This document shows, in pieces, positions 2,818 to 32,705 of a stretch of 64,000 bases of DNA. The position numbers and the translations under genes are program-made. The stretch spans positions 840,717-904,716 of the forward strand of contig CAVYGQ010000001.1 in NCBI GenBank assembly GCA_963768175.1, read 5' to 3'. The DNA is from Candidatus Doudnabacteria bacterium (GTDB lineage: Bacteria > Patescibacteriota > Doudnabacteria > UBA920). Numbering within the stretch: the first letter of the stretch is position 1; the number at the start of each line of letters is the position of its first letter. Below the pieces are notes generated by a model that searched no databases, had not been told where the DNA came from, and saw only the letters and a program-made list of their open reading frames with translations.

Positions 2818-2884
2818 GTTAACATATTATCATTTTAGCATTCTAACAATTGAAAAATGTTAGTATGTTAAAATGTTTAAATGA

Positions 2885-3601
2885 TCAGAGGTTTGCTGAC
2901 GTGTGCACCGCTATTACGTCTTCGTCATTTTCCAGCTCCTGAAACAGCGCGTCAACTTTCAGTTTTTGCTCTTCGGTTAGGTCCGTGCCTTGGGAGCTTT
3001 CTTTAATAATCTCCGCTTGGGCGATTTTGGCGCCGGCCTTTTCCAGGACTTGTTTGATTTTGTTCAAATCCGTGGGCTTGGTGTAAACTTCCAAACCTTC
3101 TTCTGACTCGCGTACATCATCGGCCCCCGCATCTATAGCCGCCAATTCAATATCAGATATTTCTGCATCGCGTTCTACCAAAATTTGTCCCTTGGTGGAA
3201 AATTGCCACGCCACGCTCCCTTGTGCCCCTAAGTTGCCGCTGTGTTTGGAGAACACATGTTTGATGTCATTGGTTGTCCTGTTGGGATTATCGGTTGCCG
3301 CTTCCACCAAAAATGCCGTGCCAAATGGCCCGTAGCCTTCATAAACCACTTCTTTTACTGCGCCGGCCCCTTCGCCAAGCGCGTTTTTGATTGCCCTGTC
3401 TATATTATCATTCGGCATGCCTTGTGCTTTGGCGGAATCCACGACGCTCTTTAATTTAAAATTCGCTTCTGGGTTTCCACCCCCGCCTTCCTTAACGGCA
3501 ATGGAAATTTTTTTGGAAAATTTGGAAAACAGCAGTCCTTTTTTTTGGTCAAGGGCTCCCTTAGTTCTTTTGATTTGCGACCATTTACTGTGACCGGACA
3601 T
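2885..3601 (-). CDS. yebC: YebC/PmpR family DNA-binding regulatory protein
   Basis: MSGHSKWSQIKRTKGALDQKKG... conserved N-terminus, 238 aa. Confidence 0.85.
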   Translation of the reverse strand: MSGHSKWSQIKRTKGALDQKKGLLFSKFSKKISIAVKEGGGGNPEANFKLKSVVDSAKAQGMPNDNIDRAIKNALGEGAGAVKEVVYEGYGPFGTAFLVEAATDNPNRTTNDIKHVFSKHSGNLGAQGSVAWQFSTKGQILVERDAEISDIELAAIDAGADDVRESEEGLEVYTKPTDLNKIKQVLEKAGAKIAQAEIIKESSQGTDLTEEQKLKVDALFQELENDEDVIAVHTSANL

Positions 3602-3612
3602 AAATAAGTAAT

Positions 3613-3666
3613 GTAGCGCGCCGATTTATCGGCAACTTGAGACAGCCCATAAATGGGCATGCTACG
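3613..3666. repeat. Compound palindromic intergenic repeat (copy 1 of 2; second copy at 55585-55637)
   Basis: GTAGCGCGCCGATTTATCGGCA...AGCCCATAAATGGGCA(T/C)GCTAC. Two inner palindromes, GCCGATTTATCGGC and GCCCATAAATGGGC, sit inside a GTAGCG/CGCTAC outer stem. Both copies carry identical 22-nt and 16-nt blocks. Confidence 0.8.
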
Positions 3667-8681: not shown

Positions 8682-9434
8682 TTATTTTGTTTCCGCCTTA
8701 TCCCACATATACCAAAACCATTTACGATAGCTGTCGGCCAAATCCTTACTGTGCAAAATAAAGAATACAACATTATCAGAAAGCCTAAATAGTTCCAGGC
8801 CGGTGTAGGTAACTACATAGTCGCCAAAGACATGAAAAATGGAATTTGTGGAATATTCTTTTGGCAGAAAACGATATTTTAAAAGTCCCGGCCAGGTTTT
8901 GGCAAAATCTGGCGCCTGGGTTTTGATTTCATGATCAAATAATTGGTGAAATTTAATTTTTTTCCTGGCGGCTTCTTTAAAAAACGCCTGCCTGCTGGCT
9001 TCCAGTTTCGGTTCAAACCAGCCGCCTTTGGCCCCTACAACAAAATTTTCCTCACCAACGCGCAAAACATCCCGCCAAAGATTTTTTTGCCCTTCCAAGC
9101 CCCGATAAATATAGGCTTCTTCCGGGGCAATGCGACGGGTGAATTTCTTTTTTAAATCAGGAAGTATTTTTCCTAGGCTGGTTTGTTTTTCCGCCAGTAA
9201 TTCCGTCAGCTTGTCTGGGTCAACTGCATTGTAGAGATTTTCCGAAGATGAAAAAATCTCAAAGACTAAGCCTTTGTCTATAAGCCGGGCAATGGCATCA
9301 TAGGCATTGCGGCGGTGAATTTTGGCACTAACAGCTATCTTGCTAATACCCGCTTCCCCTGTTTCCACAAGGGATTCGTAAATTTTGGCTTCATTTGGCG
9401 AAAGCCCTAAGCTTAGGAATAAATCTTGGTTCAT
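8682..9434 (-). CDS. TrmB-family transcriptional regulator (paralog 1)
   Basis: N-terminal wHTH (LGLSPNEAKIYESLVETGEAGISKIAVSAKIHRRNAYDAIARLIDKGLV) with a TrmB-like C-terminal domain. Confidence 0.8.
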   Translation of the reverse strand: MNQDLFLSLGLSPNEAKIYESLVETGEAGISKIAVSAKIHRRNAYDAIARLIDKGLVFEIFSSSENLYNAVDPDKLTELLAEKQTSLGKILPDLKKKFTRRIAPEEAYIYRGLEGQKNLWRDVLRVGEENFVVGAKGGWFEPKLEASRQAFFKEAARKKIKFHQLFDHEIKTQAPDFAKTWPGLLKYRFLPKEYSTNSIFHVFGDYVVTYTGLELFRLSDNVVFFILHSKDLADSYRKWFWYMWDKAETK

Positions 9435-9569
9435 ATAATGTGGTGATGATTGCTACCATGTGGCGCTATTGGCCACTCAATATAGATAATATATGCTTAT
9501 CTGTCAACCGTCAACCCCGCCGCTCGCGAGCGGCGGGTCAAGAAACGGCTCTGATAGAAGGAGGAATAC

Positions 9570-9894
9570 AATGCTTGATCAAGAGTTGAAGAGTTCTGCG
9601 ATTGCCCAAAACCCTCTCTTGGAACCGATGCTCGGGCGGAGTTCGTATACCTGCACGATTTTCGTGATTGATCTCCTTGGGGGGAAATCGGATAACTTTA
9701 GGATTTCAGACGAAGTTCTGGAGCAAATTCGAAAGAGGGTGGAGGGGGCGGAGGATGCGACCTACTACATCATCCACTTCATCCCCAGAGACTTTGAAGT
9801 TAGTAGTCTTGAGGACTTGCCTGAGTCCGAGAAAAAGAAGGTTCGCGAAGCGCTTAACCAAGCACCCTTTCCTGTTTGTATCGTTTGGGTTTAG
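9570..9894 (+). CDS. Hypothetical protein of 108 aa in a GC-rich island
   Basis: An SD (gaaggagga) lies 6 nt upstream of the ATG. GC content is far above the flanking sequence. Confidence 0.5.
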
Positions 9895-9967
9895 GCTAAC
9901 TATCGTGTGAGGTCGCTAGTACGAGCGAAGCTTGGGCGAGCTAGTGGGAGATTAAGAAAGGGGTAAT

Positions 9968-10552
9968 ATGAAAGCGGTACTGTTTTTGGCCATTTGTCTC
10001 ACCATCCCCGCTTCGGCCCAGGACTGGCAGACGCGGGACAGCCTGCACGTGCAGGCGGACGTCAGCAAAAATTGGTTCGTCTCCGGCTGGTCGGTGACCA
10101 ACCTGCGGACCGAAACCCCCAACAACACCAACCTGTTCGCAGGCGCAGGCTACCGCGGCAAAAACTGGTGGCTGGAGGCCATAGTACAGCACCAGTGGAA
10201 CACTAAGGCTAACCAGTGGATGCTGGACTTCCGGTTCAACAAGCAGACCGAACGGTGGCGCTTGTATGCCGAGGTCTCGCCTTTTCTGATCAAGAAGGCC
10301 TTCTACGAGTACGTTATTGTAGAACGGCGGACTTGGAAAGGCTTCTCGTTCGGCGCGGAGACCGAGAACACGCACCAGATTGGGCCGGACATGATCGCAA
10401 TAGGCCCTAGGGTTAGTCGCAAGCTCGGCCGGTTTGCTGGCTTTGATGCATCGGCCGCTATTGCGGTTCGGCTTAGCCCTGTCGGTGGGCATACTGAACC
10501 GCGGTTGTCCCTGACGTTCAACCGCCGGCTTTATTTGAGAGACCGCAAGTAG
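9968..10552 (+). CDS. Secreted protein with a signal peptide, possibly beta-barrel-like; GC-rich
   Basis: N-terminus MKAVLFLAICLTIPASAQD, followed by alternating hydrophobic/polar beta-like segments rich in W, Y and R. An SD (aagggg) is present. GC is about 60% against about 42% for the host. Confidence 0.5.
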   Translation: MKAVLFLAICLTIPASAQDWQTRDSLHVQADVSKNWFVSGWSVTNLRTETPNNTNLFAGAGYRGKNWWLEAIVQHQWNTKANQWMLDFRFNKQTERWRLYAEVSPFLIKKAFYEYVIVERRTWKGFSFGAETENTHQIGPDMIAIGPRVSRKLGRFAGFDASAAIAVRLSPVGGHTEPRLSLTFNRRLYLRDRK

Positions 10553-26621: not shown

Positions 26622-26695
26622 TGGAGCGGCTAACGGGAATCGGACCCGTCCCCCAACCTTGGCAAGGTCGCGTACTACCACTATACTATAGCCGC
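26622..26695 (-). tRNA. tRNA-Gly (anticodon GCC)
   Basis: The reverse complement folds as GCGGCTA..CGACC-TTGCCAA-GGTTG..TAGCCGC-T-CCA. Confidence 0.8.
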
Positions 26696-26720
26696 GTAAA
26701 ATTATTATATCAGATTTTTT

Positions 26721-26796
26721 TGGTGCCGGGCCCCAGAGTTCGAACTGGGCACGCCTGCCTCTTCAGGGCAGCGCTCTACCGATGAGCTAGCCCGGC
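26721..26796 (-). tRNA. tRNA-Phe (anticodon GAA)
   Basis: The reverse complement is GCCGGGCTAGCTCA...CTGCC-CTGAAGA-GGCAG...CCGGCACCA. Confidence 0.85.
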
Positions 26797-26938
26797 GTAA
26801 TAAATTTGTACTGTTTCTTAACTCGTCGTCTAACTCCTCGCTCGAGACACTCGCCTCGCTTTAACGTTCGTGGTTGCTTGAGGCCGTTCTACGGCCGAAA
26901 CCACGAGCGAGCTTTGACGTTAGTCAAAACGAGTTGAG

Positions 26939-27014
26939 TGGTGGGCAATGTAGGGATTGAACCTACGACCCCTTCCGTGTAAAGGAAGTGCTCTACCACT
27001 GAGCTAATTGCCCC
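26939..27014 (-). tRNA. tRNA-Val (anticodon TAC)
   Basis: The reverse complement is GGGGCAATTAGCTCAGTGGTAGAGC..CTTCC-TTTACAC-GGAAG..CCCACCA. Confidence 0.85.
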
Positions 27015-27061: not shown

Positions 27062-27364
27062 TTAAATAAATTTTGGCCCCAACCTTAAGATATTTTCAAA
27101 ATTGTCTTCCGGAGCTATTTTGTTTTTCTTTTTTTGGCCGCACTTTTGGCATTGGTGGACTAAAATGTAATCGCCGGATTTTATTTCTACAGCTACGGGC
27201 TTCATCATCCCCCCACAGGCTTCGGCGCGATCCCCCGGATTAACATCTATATGTTTGCTCCACAGGCAATTCGGGCAGTGGTTGGTATAACCCGTGCCTT
27301 TTATCTTTGCGCCGCAATGCTCGCAGACAAAATCTTCAATTGTCCTGGTGAATTTTTTGGACAT
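27062..27364 (-). CDS. RNHCP domain zinc-binding protein
   Basis: CEHCG...TNHCPNCL...CQKCG motifs. Confidence 0.65.
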   Translation of the reverse strand: MSKKFTRTIEDFVCEHCGAKIKGTGYTNHCPNCLWSKHIDVNPGDRAEACGGMMKPVAVEIKSGDYILVHQCQKCGQKKKNKIAPEDNFENILRLGPKFI

Positions 27365-27496
27365 AATAGGCTAATTATAGCTTAAAATAAATCAAGGGGC
27401 ACGTCATCAATCCTTTCGGACGAATCAGTGTCCCCTTGGGTTGTTTTGGCCTTTTAGCGGTTCCTCCTCGTGCCGCTTTTAAGCCGGTGGTGTTGT

Positions 27497-28132
27497 TCAG
27501 GCCGTTGGGAACAAGTAGGCCAAGATCTCATCGTGGGTAGCTTGGCCAATCTTCCCTGCCGACAGGTATAGTCCTAGCAGTTCTGATATCCGCCAAGCTA
27601 CGTAGCCTTTATAGTTCGCATTGGCGAGCTCGGCCATGCCGCCCTGCTCCCGGTCCACGAGCATGAAGATACCCGCGACATGGAGACGTTCGGCTTCTAA
27701 CACCTTAATGGACGCCAGTTTGGAATCCGCTTTGGTGATCAGGTCATCGAAGAGAGCCACGCGCTGGCCAGGCTGGTAAGCGCCGTCAATGTTGGCGCCA
27801 GAGCCGTGTGTCTTCATCTCTCGTGGAGTGATCATTGGTATCGTGGTAAAACTGGAGATTAGCGTAACCAGCGGAGTGGCGGCGGTCGGTACGTCGGCAA
27901 CCAAGTCACAGGTCACGCCTTCCATCATTTCTGTTAGGAGCCATGCGGTGTCCACCAGCAGCGTTGGAAACGAGCGGAGCAGGCGGAAGTTCAGGTAGAA
28001 TGGTGAGAGCGGGGCGTCGGGGTTTTTTTCGTGTAACTTGAGACGAAACCCTTTGCCTTGAGGCGACCTGGACTTGTCCAGGAAGATGCCGGCGTCAAAC
28101 CACGCCAGCGCGAGAGTTTCTTTGTCGATCAT
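27497..28132 (-). CDS. pyrE: Orotate phosphoribosyltransferase, second copy, GC-rich (xenolog)
   Basis: PRTase motif VALFDDLITKADS and FRLKLHEKNPDAPLSPFYLNFR. The start is taken at the internal MIDKE, because the upstream part overlaps pyrF. Confidence 0.7.
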   Translation of the reverse strand: MIDKETLALAWFDAGIFLDKSRSPQGKGFRLKLHEKNPDAPLSPFYLNFRLLRSFPTLLVDTAWLLTEMMEGVTCDLVADVPTAATPLVTLISSFTTIPMITPREMKTHGSGANIDGAYQPGQRVALFDDLITKADSKLASIKVLEAERLHVAGIFMLVDREQGGMAELANANYKGYVAWRISELLGLYLSAGKIGQATHDEILAYLFPTA

Positions 28133-28136
28133 GGTG

Positions 28137-28937
28137 TTAGTCCTGGCAGGCCTCGATGATGTTGTCGATGATGAGCTCCACCGCCGCCAGAGGATCCTGG
28201 GCGGCAGTAATGTCGCGGCCAACTACAATGCCGTTAGCGCCGCCGCTGATGGAGTTTCCTGGCGTTGCCACTGCCTTCTGCTCTTGCTTTGCGGAGCCAG
28301 GCAGTCGGACGCCAGGGGTGTAAATCAGGAAGTCCGGCCCGCAGGCTTCGCGGATAGCGGCGACTTCCAAAGGTGAGGCGATGACACCGTCGCAGCCGCA
28401 TTCCTGGGCCAGCTTGGCGTATCGAACAACGAGCTTGAGCCGATATGGCTCCTCGACCCCTTCTGGTTTCAGGCCAAGATCCACCAGGTCTTCCTCGCCG
28501 AGGGTGGTCAAGAGAGTTACGGCCAGCAGGAGAGGCTTGCGTTGCAGGTCGAGCTTAGCGGCGGTGGTGTCGATGGCTTCGCGGGCGGCTTTCATAGCCG
28601 CCTTGCCGGCAAAGGCGTGCATGTTGAACATAAGCGGTCGGAGACGGGTCAGGGCTGTTGCCGCGCCCTTGACCGTATTGCCTATATCGGCGAGTTTGCA
28701 GTCCATGAAGTCGGTGCCGACAAGCTCGCCAAACAGGTCCCGCAGGTCCTCGAGCGCCGTAAGCGCATCATCGTAGTCGGCGGTCACCAGAGTGGTAAAC
28801 ACCGAAAGTATGAACTCAAAGCCGATCTTGAACCCGCGCACCTTGCCTTTCAGCATGGTGACGAGCCCTGTGGCTTTGATCACATTGTCTACATCCAAGG
28901 CCACGATAATCCGTGACCCCGCGTCTTTTCGAGTCAT
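28137..28937 (-). CDS. pyrF: Orotidine 5'-phosphate decarboxylase, second copy, GC-rich (xenolog)
   Basis: IIVALDV start and the DxKxxDIxNT motif (MDCKLADIGNTV). Confidence 0.75.
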   Translation of the reverse strand: MTRKDAGSRIIVALDVDNVIKATGLVTMLKGKVRGFKIGFEFILSVFTTLVTADYDDALTALEDLRDLFGELVGTDFMDCKLADIGNTVKGAATALTRLRPLMFNMHAFAGKAAMKAAREAIDTTAAKLDLQRKPLLLAVTLLTTLGEEDLVDLGLKPEGVEEPYRLKLVVRYAKLAQECGCDGVIASPLEVAAIREACGPDFLIYTPGVRLPGSAKQEQKAVATPGNSISGGANGIVVGRDITAAQDPLAAVELIIDNIIEACQD

Positions 28938-29113
28938 TGTCTAGTCCTTTCACGTGAAATGAAAAGAAGACCCCACTATACAGCTAATTGGGCCTCCTTT
29001 TGCTTGTGGACGGAGTATACCAAAAGGAAAGCTTAAAATCAAGGCTTTTTTAATGGTGAATTTTCCAAAAATTTGATATGATAAAAGCAGCCCAAAATTA
29101 AAAATTATCAAAA

Positions 29114-30004
29114 ATGAGCTCCGCATCCAAGGTAACCTTAGTGTCCCCGAATTTTTCCGATATCTTTACCCCAAATATTGAAATTGGCCAGTTTCCGGAC
29201 GGTGACAGCCACGTGCGCATCCCATTGATTGCGGAGTGCAAAGATGCCGATGTAGTGGTTTTTCACAGGCTTTACCCCAACCAGAACAGCTTACTGGTGA
29301 GCCTGCTTTTTATTTTGGACTCATTAAAAGAAGTTGGAGCAAAACATATAAGCGTGGTAGCGCCGTATTTGCCGTATTCCCGCCAGGATAAAAAAAAGCT
29401 CAACGGCGAAGTGGCAAGCGCGTACGTGGTTTGCAACATGCTTGCCCGGGCCGGCTGCGGCAAGCTGGTGGCGTTTGACTGCCATTTTTTAAATAATGAA
29501 GGTCCGGCGGAGTTTAACGGTTTGAAAATTCAAAACATATCCATGGGCAAGGCTTTGGTGGAGTACGCCAAGACAGCCGCGTTTTTGGGCGAGGACTGCG
29601 AGGTGATTTCGCCGGATATGGGCGCAAACTATTTGGTTAAAGACCTTGGGGGCAAGTCTTATAAAAAATCCAGGAAAGAATATGACGGTGAAAAAATTAA
29701 TTATCGCGACGTGGAAACCATGGACGGCGACTTTGACGTTAAGGGGAAAAACGTCTTGCTTTTGGACGATATGATAAGCACTGGCGCCACCATGCTCCGG
29801 GCTTTGGAAAAATTAACGGCTAGTGGAGCAAAGAAAATCTGCTGCGCCGCCACCCATGGGTTGTTCTTATACAATTGCGTGGATAAAATCAAAAAGTTTA
29901 CGGATTGTGTTTATTCCACGGATACGATTATTAACGACAACGCCAAAGTTTCCATCAAAGAAAAGTTGGCGGACATTGGTAGCAACCAGCCGACGTTATT
30001 TTAA
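29114..30004 (+). CDS. prs: Ribose-phosphate pyrophosphokinase (PRPP synthetase)
   Basis: FPDGDSHVRI and VLLLDDMISTGATM motifs. Confidence 0.88.
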   Translation: MSSASKVTLVSPNFSDIFTPNIEIGQFPDGDSHVRIPLIAECKDADVVVFHRLYPNQNSLLVSLLFILDSLKEVGAKHISVVAPYLPYSRQDKKKLNGEVASAYVVCNMLARAGCGKLVAFDCHFLNNEGPAEFNGLKIQNISMGKALVEYAKTAAFLGEDCEVISPDMGANYLVKDLGGKSYKKSRKEYDGEKINYRDVETMDGDFDVKGKNVLLLDDMISTGATMLRALEKLTASGAKKICCAATHGLFLYNCVDKIKKFTDCVYSTDTIINDNAKVSIKEKLADIGSNQPTLF

Positions 30005-30020
30005 ACCTATCGGCCAAATT

Positions 30021-30647
30021 ATGGAAAATATTCTGGATATCTTAAAAAAATCCGGGGCGATACTAGACGGCCATTTTGTTTTGACGTCCGGCAAGCACGC
30101 CAACGCTTATTTGAATAAAGACGCGCTTTATCCGCACATTCAAGATACCTCGGATGTCTGCAGGATGTTTGCCGAAAAAGTAAAAAATTTGGATATTGAT
30201 ACGGTTGTCGGCCCGGCTTTGGGGGGAATTATCCTTTCCACTTGGACGGCGCATCACCTTTCTAAATTTAAGGGCAAAGAGGTATTTGGCGTTTATACGC
30301 AAAAAGCCGCTGACGGCAGCATGCAATTTGCCAGGGGCTACGATAAATTTGTTGCCGGTAAAAAGGTTTTGGTGGTTGAGGACTTAACTTCTACCGGCGG
30401 GAGCGCGAAAAAAGTCGTGGATGCCGTAAAGGCCATTGGCGGCATGGTGGTTGGGGTTTGCGTTATGGTTAACCGCAATCCCAAAGAGGTGACCGCGGAT
30501 TATTTTGGCGTGCCGTTTTTTCCGCTCGGTACTTTTGAAGTTGAGGCTCATGAGCAAGTCGATTGTCCCATGTGCAAAGCCGGTGTACCGATAAATACAG
30601 AAGTCGGGCATGGGAAAGAGTATTTGGAAGCTAAAGGGTTGTTATAA
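30021..30647 (+). CDS. pyrE: Orotate phosphoribosyltransferase (native-composition copy)
   Basis: PRTase motif VLVVEDLTSTGGS. The start at 30021 (MENILDIL) is the first ATG in frame after the prs stop. Confidence 0.75.
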   Translation: MENILDILKKSGAILDGHFVLTSGKHANAYLNKDALYPHIQDTSDVCRMFAEKVKNLDIDTVVGPALGGIILSTWTAHHLSKFKGKEVFGVYTQKAADGSMQFARGYDKFVAGKKVLVVEDLTSTGGSAKKVVDAVKAIGGMVVGVCVMVNRNPKEVTADYFGVPFFPLGTFEVEAHEQVDCPMCKAGVPINTEVGHGKEYLEAKGLL

Positions 30648-30659
30648 TTTTGCAACTTT

Positions 30660-31358
30660 ATGCTGACGGAAACAAAAGTTATCTTATCGGCCGATGGTTA
30701 CGATAAAGAGGGATTGCTTGGACTTGTGGAAAAAATCGGCAAGAAAGTTTATTGTGTGAAAATCCATAATTTGTATGACCGGTATGGGCCGCAAATTGTA
30801 AATGATTTGCGCAGAGCAGGGGCGCGAAAAGTTTGGGTGGACGTAAAATTACACGATATCCCCAATACGGTTAAATTGAGGGCGCGAGCCTTAGCCGAAT
30901 CCGGCTGTGAGATTATTACGGTGCACGCTTCGGGCGGTATGGAGATGATGCGGGCGGCCAAAGAAGGTTTTAATAAAGGCAAGGTTTTTGCCGTAACAGC
31001 GCTGACCTCCCTGAACAACGAGGCTATTAAGATTATTTATGGCGCCCAAGATGCCAAAGAATTGGTCATGCGTTTGGCGCTTTTGGTTAAAATGTCGGGG
31101 GTGGACGGTTTGGTATGTTCTCCGCAAGAAGTCCCGGCATTGCGCGCAGTTCCCGATTATAATGATTTAGAGCTGGTTGTACCGGGCATCCGCTCGGCAG
31201 GGGTCGGTGTGGATGACCAAAAGCGTTTTGATACCCCTTCAAATGCCTTAAGAGCCGGAGCGAATTTTTTAGTAATCGGCAGGCAAATAACTAAAGCCCC
31301 CAATCCGGTGGAGGCCGTAGATGCGTTGGAGTCTGAAATTGCGCAAGCCGTAAAATAA
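30660..31358 (+). CDS. pyrF: Orotidine 5'-phosphate decarboxylase (native copy)
   Basis: DVKLHDIPNTV (DxKxxDIPNT) and LVCSP motifs. Confidence 0.8.
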   Translation: MLTETKVILSADGYDKEGLLGLVEKIGKKVYCVKIHNLYDRYGPQIVNDLRRAGARKVWVDVKLHDIPNTVKLRARALAESGCEIITVHASGGMEMMRAAKEGFNKGKVFAVTALTSLNNEAIKIIYGAQDAKELVMRLALLVKMSGVDGLVCSPQEVPALRAVPDYNDLELVVPGIRSAGVGVDDQKRFDTPSNALRAGANFLVIGRQITKAPNPVEAVDALESEIAQAVK

Positions 31359-31364
31359 TGGTAA

Positions 31365-32435
31365 ATGTATAAATTATTTAGGCCGTTAATCTTTAAAGCT
31401 TCGTCCGATCCCGAAGACATACACAGGGTGGTGATGGGGCTTTTGCATATGGTTGGCAGCATTAGTCCACTTGGCTGGGCGGAGCGGCGGGTTTTTGATT
31501 TTGCCGACAAAAGGCTGGCACAAAACCTTTTTGGTTTGAATTTTAAAAATCCGGTCGGTCTGGCTGGAGGTTTTGATAAGCATGGGGAAGCCATTTTAGG
31601 CTTGGCCAATGTAGGTTTTGGGTTTTTGGAAATCGGCACGGTCACACGTTTTGGTCAGCCGGGCAACCCCAGGCCGCGCATTTTTAGATTACAAAAAGAT
31701 GAAGCCTTAATTAACCGTATGGGTTTTAACAACGAAGGCGCGGATTTTTTGGCAAGCAAATTGTCAAAAACAAAAAAATTAACAATTCCGCTGGGCATTA
31801 ATTTGGGTAAGTCTAAAGTTACCGAACTGGCCAATGCGGCGGAAGATTATTTGTATTCCTTTTCCAAACTTTACGATTATGGCGATTATTTTGTGGTTAA
31901 TATTAGCTCGCCCAATACCTCGGGGCTGCGGCAGTTGCACGAAAAAAGTTTTTTGGTTGATATTTTGTCGGGTTTGAACGGTTACAGATTAAGGCAGCCG
32001 GTAATAAAACCGGTCTTGGTAAAAACCGTTGTGGACTTGTCTTTGGAGGCAATTGACGAGGCATTGGAAGTTTGCAAAAACCAAAATGTTGACGGTATAA
32101 TTATTAGCAACACTTCAATTGGTAGGGATGGCTTCAAAATTAAAACCGATGAAACAGGAGGTTTAAGCGGCAAGCCGATAAGACAGAAATCTACTGATTA
32201 TATAAAATATATTCATCGGCAGGCTCCAGGCCTTCCAATTGTAGGTGTTGGTGGAATTTTTAGTGCGGAAGATGCTTACGAAAAAATTAAAGCGGGAGCA
32301 TCGCTTGCCCAAATTTATACCGGATTGATTTACGAAGGCCCGGGAGTGGTAAAAAAAATAAACCAGGGTTTGGTAAAATTGCTTGAGCGCGACGGGTTTA
32401 AAAATATTGGTGAAGCGGTTGGGAAAGGAAACTAA
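31365..32435 (+). CDS. pyrD: Dihydroorotate dehydrogenase (quinone), class 2
   Basis: N-terminal extension, GLAGGFDKHGEA, NRMGFNNEG and GVGGI motifs. Confidence 0.88.
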   Translation: MYKLFRPLIFKASSDPEDIHRVVMGLLHMVGSISPLGWAERRVFDFADKRLAQNLFGLNFKNPVGLAGGFDKHGEAILGLANVGFGFLEIGTVTRFGQPGNPRPRIFRLQKDEALINRMGFNNEGADFLASKLSKTKKLTIPLGINLGKSKVTELANAAEDYLYSFSKLYDYGDYFVVNISSPNTSGLRQLHEKSFLVDILSGLNGYRLRQPVIKPVLVKTVVDLSLEAIDEALEVCKNQNVDGIIISNTSIGRDGFKIKTDETGGLSGKPIRQKSTDYIKYIHRQAPGLPIVGVGGIFSAEDAYEKIKAGASLAQIYTGLIYEGPGVVKKINQGLVKLLERDGFKNIGEAVGKGN

Positions 32436-32618: not shown

Positions 32619-32705
32619 GCCCAGGTGGTGGAACTGGTATACACGTAGGCTTGAGGTGCTTATGGGAGCAATCCCGTGCGGGTTCGAGTCCCGCCCTGGG
32701 CACCA
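32619..32705 (+). tRNA. tRNA-Leu (anticodon GAG)
   Basis: Anticodon arm TAGGC-TTGAGGT-GCTTA and a long variable arm. The 3' half is identical to that of tRNA-Leu(TAA). Confidence 0.75.

Follow-up and report, generated by a model that had tools for sequence, protein, structure and literature searches.

This analysis concerns a 64,000-nucleotide stretch of contig CAVYGQ010000001.1 (assembly GCA_963768175.1, Candidatus Doudnabacteria bacterium), called the window here, and in it a short GC-rich block of two genes, pyrF and pyrE, for the last two steps of uridine monophosphate (UMP) synthesis. The block stands back to back with a prs-pyrE-pyrF-pyrD cluster of ordinary composition (the AT-normal cluster), sharing a divergent spacer of 176 bp with prs. 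This small (~0.95 Mb) genome of the candidate phyla radiation (CPR) has two intact, unrelated sets of genes for the same two reactions next to each other, and both sets are under purifying selection. A preliminary description of this DNA had reported a second pyrF-pyrE pair beside a native prs-pyrE-pyrF-pyrD cluster, and the open reading frames (ORFs) are indeed there, on the minus strand at the positions given in Table 1.

The GC content of the block (27497-28937) is 58.0%, versus 43.7% for the remaining sequence of the window. No other 1.44-kb stretch of the 64 kb is as GC-rich; the block stands about 4.5 standard deviations over the mean, and the composition changes sharply at both of its ends. 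At third codon positions the GC fraction (GC3) of its two genes is 0.715 and 0.678, ranks 2 and 3 among 60 ORFs (mean 0.50, standard deviation 0.08), with pyrF reaching 60% GC overall and a GC3 of 0.72. An earlier estimate of about 62% against about 43% was right about the sharpness of the contrast, but 62% is reached only locally, inside pyrF.

All four genes, both pyrE and both pyrF, are full-length ORFs with start codons and Shine-Dalgarno (SD)-like sequences. The GC-rich pyrE begins at the ATG at 28132 and not at the TTG at 28222 of the ORF list, which is wrong, since homologues begin with MIDKE and the deposited protein (P0001) has 211 aa. A stop codon at 28137-28139 and a gap of 4 nt split the GC-rich pyrF from pyrE, which gives two polypeptides and no fused UMP synthase; the 4-nt gap suggests that their translation may be coupled.

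The two sets are a xenologous pair and not tandem duplicates, as the preliminary description had held. The GC-rich set joins a type-1 orotidine 5'-monophosphate (OMP) decarboxylase with insertions to an orotate phosphoribosyltransferase (OPRT) resembling that of UMP synthase (UMPS), versus a plain type-1 PyrF and a Thermus-type OPRT in the AT-normal cluster. The two PyrF copies share 33% identity, and the two PyrE copies gave no BLASTP match to each other at 1e-5. All four proteins of the AT-normal cluster pass curated cut-offs, and its PyrE has a normal phosphoribosyl pyrophosphate (PRPP) motif and dense CPR-wide relatives at 60-87% identity. Its pyrD (31365-32435) is of the membrane-associated, quinone-dependent class 2. 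Catalytic signatures had been ascribed to every copy. They are present in both PyrF proteins, which keep D-x-K-x-x-D and the other invariant residues, and in the AT-normal PyrE, while the phosphoribosyltransferase (PRTase) motif of the GC-rich PyrE is only partly there, its PRPP loop being degenerate. Disrupted catalytic residues, suggested earlier as a possible sign of a pseudogene, were seen in neither copy: the PyrF alignment keeps all of them, and the OPRT-like protein retains the Lys and His of the flexible loop, the acidic pair and the Arg of DREQGG.

The GC-rich PyrF matches Pfam PF00215 with 139.2 bits (cut-off 27, E 2.4e-40) and passes TIGR01740 with 135.9 bits (cut-off 92.3), and with 181.9 it falls narrowly under the cut-off of 193 of the stricter equivalog NF001273. 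D15, K37, D79-x-K81-x-x-D84, T88, R211, Q220 and G240-R241 are invariant in an alignment of type-1 enzymes that includes both window copies; of these, Q220 and G240-R241 are the phosphate-gripper residues. The protein is thus like the bacterial type-1 OMP decarboxylases (TIGR01740/NF001273; PDB 3TR2, 1DBT and 1EIX) in all catalytic and phosphate-gripper residues, and differs from them by its NF001273 score and by two insertions of ~15 and ~10 residues. The insertions are common to a small clade (~20 clusters, 53-67% identity), in which one cluster bears the NCBI name of a Doudnabacteria OMP decarboxylase. By its sequence, the GC-rich pyrF encodes a type-1 OMP decarboxylase, with a predicted activity converting OMP to UMP.

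The GC-rich pair has control elements of its own in the divergent region. A sigma-70-like promoter, TTGATT-17-TATACT, lies at 29042..29014, 77 nt upstream of pyrF. In the leader (28938-29006, minus strand) an 11-bp stem pairs the SD-like AAAAGGAGGCC with GGUCUUCUUUU around a variable loop, and after the stem comes the palindrome UUUCAC(GC)GUGAAAGG, overlapping the real SD; it stands as UUUCACGUGAAAGG ahead of the AUG. The leader, with its stem and palindrome, is conserved in the four genomes that carry it, the window and the related L087 (9095-9182), L092 (7915-8003) and L093 (7918-8003), and both arms are invariant in these genomes, in which synonymous sites are saturated. Its minimum free energy is -19 kcal/mol (z -2.4). 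A search of Rfam found only tRNAs at gathering thresholds, and over the leader just a chance miRNA match at E<=1.

Control of pyrimidine genes through leaders is known from the UTP-sensitive attenuation of E. coli pyrBI and pyrE and from attenuation by PyrR in Bacillus. As in those systems, a structured, U-rich leader lies here between the promoter and the first pyr gene; unlike theirs, it is without a PyrR-binding motif, an Rfam match, a conserved leader peptide or evidence of termination. Its function may be to attenuate the pyrimidine genes or to switch their translation. Downstream of pyrE, an inverted repeat and T-rich run read by eye form a possible terminator; a consensus terminator scan of 26.9-29.3 kb flagged none.

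Table 1. Features of the pyr locus, in window coordinates
Feature	Position	Strand	Details
tRNA-Gly, tRNA-Phe, tRNA-Val cluster	26622..27013	-	beyond RNHCP; conserved in L087, L092, L093
RNHCP-domain gene	27062..27364	-	100 aa; PF12647 1.5e-31; slot border in all five genomes
possible terminator	27394..27437	-	inverted repeat AAGGGGCAC...GTGTCCCCTT and T-rich run
GC-rich pyrE	27497..28132	-	divergent UMPS-like OPRT, 211 aa
GC-rich pyrF	28137..28937	-	type-1 OMP decarboxylase, 266 aa, two clade-specific insertions
promoter-like site and structured 5' leader	28938..29042	-	GC-rich operon
AT-normal cluster	29114..32435	+	prs, pyrE, pyrF, pyrD; GC 45%
prs	29114-30004	+	TIGR01251 185 bits
AT-normal pyrE, Thermus type	30021-30647	+	TIGR01367 155.9 bits (cut-off 150.25)
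AT-normal pyrF, plain type 1	30660-31358	+	NF001273 206.9 (cut-off 193)
pyrD, quinone type	31365-32435	+	NF003652 438.9
tRNA-Leu(GAG)	32619..32705	+	ARAGORN; other slot border, also in L087, L090, L092, L093

The highest GC3 in the window (0.749) belongs to a different gene, an ORF of 194 aa at 9968-10552 (plus strand) with a signal-peptide-like N-terminus and no Pfam family. The kilobase in which it sits is locally GC-rich (51.8%), and this gene too may be compositionally foreign.

The OPRT-like protein

The GC-rich PyrE gave no match to Pfam PF00156 at E<=0.01 and stayed below the cut-offs of the NCBIfam OPRT models TIGR00336 (71.1, cut-off 106.8), NF010382 (74.2, cut-off 208) and NF004034 (66.9, cut-off 656). 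Its top sequence matches in the PDB are the Leishmania UMPS 3qw4 and the human OPRT 2wns, at ~1e-20. An AF2 model built from the family alignment (pLDDT 94.9) has the OPRT-type fold, with a type I PRTase core and an N-terminal hood, and a Foldseek search of the PDB with this model returned nothing but OPRTs among the top 40 matches, 2wns first (TM 0.84/0.90, rmsd 2.1).

The PRPP loop is degenerate (VALFDDLITKADS). In VALFDDLITKADSK the acidic pair and the Thr are retained, Gly is replaced by Ala and an Asp stands within the loop; the Leishmania counterpart is STGETK, and the xADSK of the OPRT-like family resembles this loop of an active enzyme. K107 and H109 of the flexible loop and R161 of DREQGG do not vary among 29 family members, and they align with their equivalents in 2wns and 3qw4. 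D129-D130, the acidic pair, and T133 are also kept in the family alignment, whose motifs are FRLKLHEKxPDAPLSPxY, ADVPTAATP, PMITPRExKTHG, DDLITxADSK and VLVDREQGG.

The best sequence and fold matches thus lie with the OPRT domain of UMP synthase (human 2WNS, Leishmania donovani 3QW4) and with the cyanobacterial bifunctional PyrF/PyrE (NF004034). The DREQGG motif and the flexible-loop lysine are common to the UMP synthase domain and the GC-rich PyrE, and the Leishmania enzyme likewise has an acidic-plus-lysine PRPP loop. The domain order of those fusions, decarboxylase then OPRT, is also the gene order here, and true fusions are known within the OPRT-like family. The differences are that the genes are separate in the window, that the scores are far below the cut-offs (74 vs 208; 67 vs 656), and that the OPRT-like family has an extra HEKxPDAP insertion and an Ala at the loop Gly. 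The clade of the window's protein has a further insertion of 7 residues.

Despite the missed profile cut-offs, the GC-rich PyrE is most likely a real OPRT. Its fold and catalytic residues, together with the gene context and fusions described below, give us high confidence that it is a genuine, under-annotated OPRT, predicted to be active as such.

The pyr slot in related genomes

To place the block, we compared the window with ~20 kb from each of four relatives, L087, L090, L092 and L093. The closest relative of the GC-rich PyrE (~84-85% identity) is found on 78-kb contigs of two other projects (L087 and L089), and L090 was found through the AT-normal PyrE (82% identity). The slot is bounded in all five genomes by RNHCP at one end and by FMN reductase and tRNA-Leu(GAG) at the other. 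Past RNHCP, the window, L087, L092 and L093 also share the tRNA-Val/Phe/Gly cluster; the L090 contig ends beside RNHCP.

What lies between these borders differs from genome to genome. L087 is collinear with the window over 23.2-35.7 kb, and its slot holds a 4-kb block of 55-60% GC with pyrF, an OPRT-like pyrE, a class-1-like pyrD and a dihydroorotase gene (pyrC), and no prs cluster. L090 has prs-pyrE-(LOG-like gene)-pyrF-pyrD at host-like GC and no GC-rich genes. In its cluster a 190-aa LOG/TIGR00725-like gene with a weak ThcA-like match (2292-2864) stands between pyrE and a pyrF of type 2 (2866-3666; TIGR02127). The window's pyrF being of type 1, even the "native" cluster is therefore mosaic among relatives. 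In the more distant L092 (a Doudnabacteria metagenome-assembled genome) and L093 the slot contains the GC-rich pyrF and, behind it, PRTases of other kinds that are only distantly Thermus-type-like; L092 also has pyrD and pyrC there. Counted over the five genomes, the GC-rich pyrF cassette occupies the slot in four (window, L087, L092, L093), in two of them with pyrD and pyrC (L087, L092), and the AT-normal prs cluster in two (window, L090); only the window has both sets. An in-progress gene displacement, one of the options of the preliminary description, is supported by this pattern of AT-normal genes alone in the slot of L090, GC-rich genes alone in those of L087, L092 and L093, and both in the window.

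The sharp compositional step at both ends of the block is what a chimeric assembly or a contaminant would also produce, and contamination had been named earlier as a possible flaw. That explanation is hardly credible. In an independent Logan assembly of ERR10755942, prs, the pair and RNHCP are 100% identical across both junctions, and three related genomes from other samples and projects join the cassette to the same neighbours at the same syntenic site.

A recent acquisition from a distant GC-rich donor, such as Actinobacteria, archaea or Chloroflexota, would account for the composition (GC 58% vs 44%, GC3 ~0.7 vs 0.5), and the OPRT-like family does look native in the GC-rich Ktedonobacterales and Chloroflexia. 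Synteny largely refutes this scenario, which we regard as very improbable. L087, L092 and L093 have the same cassette and leader at the same site, and the identity of their flanking genes to those of the window is only 66-80%. A tree of four flanking proteins (714 columns) sets L092 and L093 apart from the trio of window, L087 and L090 in 200/200 bootstraps, and the pyrF tree is compatible with this topology. The cassette is found on both sides of this best-supported split and is therefore at least as old at the locus as the AT-normal cluster; since it is a conserved occupant of the locus, its high GC does not mark a recent arrival. Both proteins have their closest homologues in CPR, and Chloroflexota and CPR form the centre of the OPRT-like family; the archaeal or actinobacterial type proposed before is not supported.

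The surrounding genes are housekeeping ones (ribosomal protein S1, polyamine decarboxylases, IF-2, RbfA and a DHH phosphoesterase), with no integrase or transposase among the neighbouring genes. No direct repeats or shared sequence above chance level turned up at the borders of the cassette or in a comparison with the RNHCP-prs spacer of L090. The block does show the deviating composition and patchy presence of an island, being absent from the slot of L090 and differing in content among L087, L092 and L093. The locus is in these respects a case of xenologous gene displacement at a tRNA-flanked site, with equivalent but unrelated sets alternating in one conserved slot and contrasting in composition. 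Unlike typical cases, it has no integrase, transposase or repeats, and the compositionally odd set is the conserved occupant and not the newcomer. Low-GC LAGLIDADG-like ORFs stand beside the border tRNA genes in relatives (L087, 13807-14556 and 19209-19880; L092, 7185-7835), though not in the window, and homing endonucleases could contribute to turnover at the slot.

One of the two sets could also be a decaying remnant, with pseudogenes in the making. The pyrD and pyrC of the island are already gone from the window genome, and the GC-rich PyrF is 64% identical to its sister copy in L087, compared with 66-78% for flanking proteins and ~84-85% for the GC-rich PyrE. We consider this very unlikely, because the ORFs are full-length, the catalytic residues are kept, the promoter and leader are conserved and dN/dS is ~0.2. 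Measured against L087, dN/dS is 0.21 for the GC-rich pyrF and 0.165 for the GC-rich pyrE (flanking housekeeping genes, 0.04-0.16), so that the decay for which the preliminary description had proposed looking did not appear in the GC-rich pair.

Distribution and context of the OPRT-like family

A word-indexed search for the family gave 975 matches, and a profile search gave 692 representative clusters at E<=1e-30. Relatives occur in at least 218 species-representative genomes, mostly of Ktedonobacterales, Chloroflexia, Dehalococcoidia and CPR, with a few in Acidobacteria, Planctomycetes and Bathyarchaeia. Most members have no Pfam domain and every NCBI-named one is a "hypothetical protein", a name that many bear because they fall below the Pfam and NCBIfam cut-offs.

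Gene context was counted at 80 species-representative loci, with genes identified by tblastn. At 55 of the 80 (71 of which had room upstream), pyrF lies directly upstream of the OPRT-like gene on the same strand, and 74 of the 80 have one or more further pyr genes within 5 kb; within that distance pyrD was found at 36, a dihydroorotase-like gene (pyrC) at 13 and a carbamoyltransferase gene (pyrB) at 9. In Chloroflexia the order is pyrF-[OPRT-like gene]-pyrC-pyrB-pyrD, and the OPRT-like gene is the sole PRTase gene seen in those operons. Fusions of an OMP decarboxylase with the OPRT-like domain are found among the best profile matches (P0361, P0363, P0369, P0377, P0409 and P0451). They have the decarboxylase at the N-terminus and measure 435-555 aa; the exception, with 753 aa, contains two decarboxylase stretches. 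The decarboxylases are of at least three types, and the decarboxylase half of P0361 resembles the AT-normal PyrF of the window.

In Ktedonobacterales (GC3 0.8-0.9) and Chloroflexia the GC content of the OPRT-like gene matches that of its own genome. The window copy belongs to a CPR-only clade that shares the 7-residue insertion, with a GC3 of 0.61-0.77, except in L016 (0.49), in surroundings with a flanking GC of 0.36-0.51. Two other CPR genomes of low GC (~37%) have a 1.4-kb block of pyrF and OPRT-like gene at 58-62% GC (L045/L047, about 9300-10500; L076, about 300-1500), and these blocks adjoin nrdR and an intein-containing ribonucleotide reductase gene (nrdJ).

Two further neighbours recur. 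The RNHCP zinc-ribbon gene (PF12647) repeatedly stands beside pyr genes in two distant phyla (for example L005, 6389-6841); it lies within 5 kb of the OPRT-like gene at 24 of the 80 loci, and many Ktedonobacterales have the order RNHCP-pyrF(type 2)-OPRT-like-pyrD. A literature search on RNHCP, and on CPR together with OPRT or pyrimidine genes, found nothing usable. In Pyrinomonadaceae, Dehalococcoidia and Pirellulales (L003, 3744-7181; L014; L021; L056) a protein of 943-1537 aa is encoded directly upstream of the pyrF and OPRT-like pair. That of L003 has an N-terminal excisionase/MAD1-like helix-turn-helix (HTH) and a faint PRTase-like stretch, and its neighbours include HipA, a DNA methylase, an HNH nuclease and a helicase gene; for the large protein no solved relative was found, the HTH being the only match. 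The pairs behind it form a short-branched clade spanning phyla, which suggests a mobile module that uses the same enzymes for purposes other than housekeeping. A role of the pair in anti-phage defence was considered and rejected, since PADLOC, run on the pair, on RNHCP and on neighbouring genes of related loci, gave nothing for the pair.

Probable redundancy and gene replacement

We think it probable that the block is a working second pyrF-pyrE operon duplicating the reactions of its neighbours, and that the window represents a redundant intermediate of xenologous replacement. Transcription of the GC-rich operon would start at its own promoter in the 176-bp divergent region and run through the structured leader, its PyrE would convert orotate and PRPP to OMP and its PyrF would convert OMP to UMP, the same reactions as those expected of the neighbouring pyrE and pyrF. 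The cassette would be what remains of a GC-rich pyr island (pyrF-pyrE-pyrD-pyrC) that occupied the tRNA-Leu(GAG)/RNHCP slot in a Doudnabacteria-like clade. The window genome would have lost the island's pyrD and pyrC, with the CPR-typical prs-pyrE-pyrF-pyrD in the same slot. In the simplest history the ancestor of the trio had both sets, L087 lost the prs cluster from the slot and L090 lost the GC-rich island; relatives would have resolved the replacement one way or the other, while the window keeps the redundant stage.

The composition fits an old acquisition from a very GC-rich source that was then partially ameliorated. A special explanation for the persistence of the high GC was dropped, since partial amelioration from a source with a GC3 of 0.8-0.9, as in Ktedonobacterales, is enough.

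Several points weigh against this reading. The OPRT-like protein is under every curated profile threshold, its 5'-phosphate loop contains an acidic residue and an Ala where Gly is usual, and its N-terminal hood carries an insertion of 4 residues, which leaves some room for an altered specificity. No pyrB or pyrC was found in the 64-kb window, where tblastn for pyrC, the island-type pyrD and the LOG-like gene also gave no match. The sets "missing" from the slot in L087, L090, L092 and L093 may lie elsewhere in those genomes. The branching within the trio is not settled by the flank tree (68% vs 32%), and an ancestor with both sets would be only one parsimonious scenario. Between the window and its sister, dS is 0.52 for the GC-rich pyrE, well below the 1.33 of pyrF and the 1.0-3.6 of the flanking genes. 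This hints at a later exchange of pyrE between lineages, which fits the differing PRTase partner of the GC-rich pyrF among relatives.

The main rival is that the pair is not redundant, acting on another base or nucleotide or in a separately regulated role such as the salvage of host-derived orotate; it holds this place because the conserved loop changes of the family are unexplained and both sets are retained. It would be in keeping with purifying selection on both sets in a reduced genome, with the family-wide conservation of the unusual PRPP loop and N-terminal hood, with scores under the cut-offs of the curated OPRT models, with a conserved structured leader that the prs cluster does not share, and with the place of the pair behind a large HTH protein in defence-like neighbourhoods of other phyla. 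We nevertheless judge it unlikely. The slot of L087 has just this pair, with pyrD and pyrC, and the Chloroflexia operons with pyrF, pyrC, pyrB and pyrD have the OPRT-like gene as their only PRTase. The fusions with three OMP decarboxylase types, the OPRT fold with its orotate-site residues and the complete OMP-binding residues of PyrF point the same way. Operon context, fusions and fold all indicate an ordinary OPRT, contrary to the different substrate specificity entertained in the preliminary description.

An elaborate version of the rival would make the pair a "split UMP synthase" module, separately regulated, with a divergent OPRT whose substrate or effector specificity is altered by the conserved loop changes, a clade-specific PyrF that forms a complex through its insertions, and a new cis-regulatory leader RNA. 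It would travel among CPR bacteria with a composition of its own (GC3 0.61-0.77 in genomes of 36-51% GC), and it would be retained for something that the standard enzymes cannot do, for example with host-derived orotate or an orotate analogue. We find this unlikely.

A redundant stage of replacement is ordinary biology and not a categorically new phenomenon: the locus is a well-documented instance of a known process, to which an annotation gap for a large OPRT subfamily is added. As such it is a clear natural case of the exchange of essential pathway genes in ultra-small genomes: five related genomes fill one conserved slot with five combinations of equivalent pyrimidine genes. It also shows that a deviating composition can belong to the older occupant of a locus and not to the newcomer, which calls for caution where foreign DNA is called from GC content. 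The analysis also flags the OPRT subfamily itself, with its 692 representative clusters and at least 218 species-representative genomes. Many of its members fall under the cut-offs, and reconstructions of the pathway in Chloroflexota and CPR may therefore wrongly call pyrE missing.

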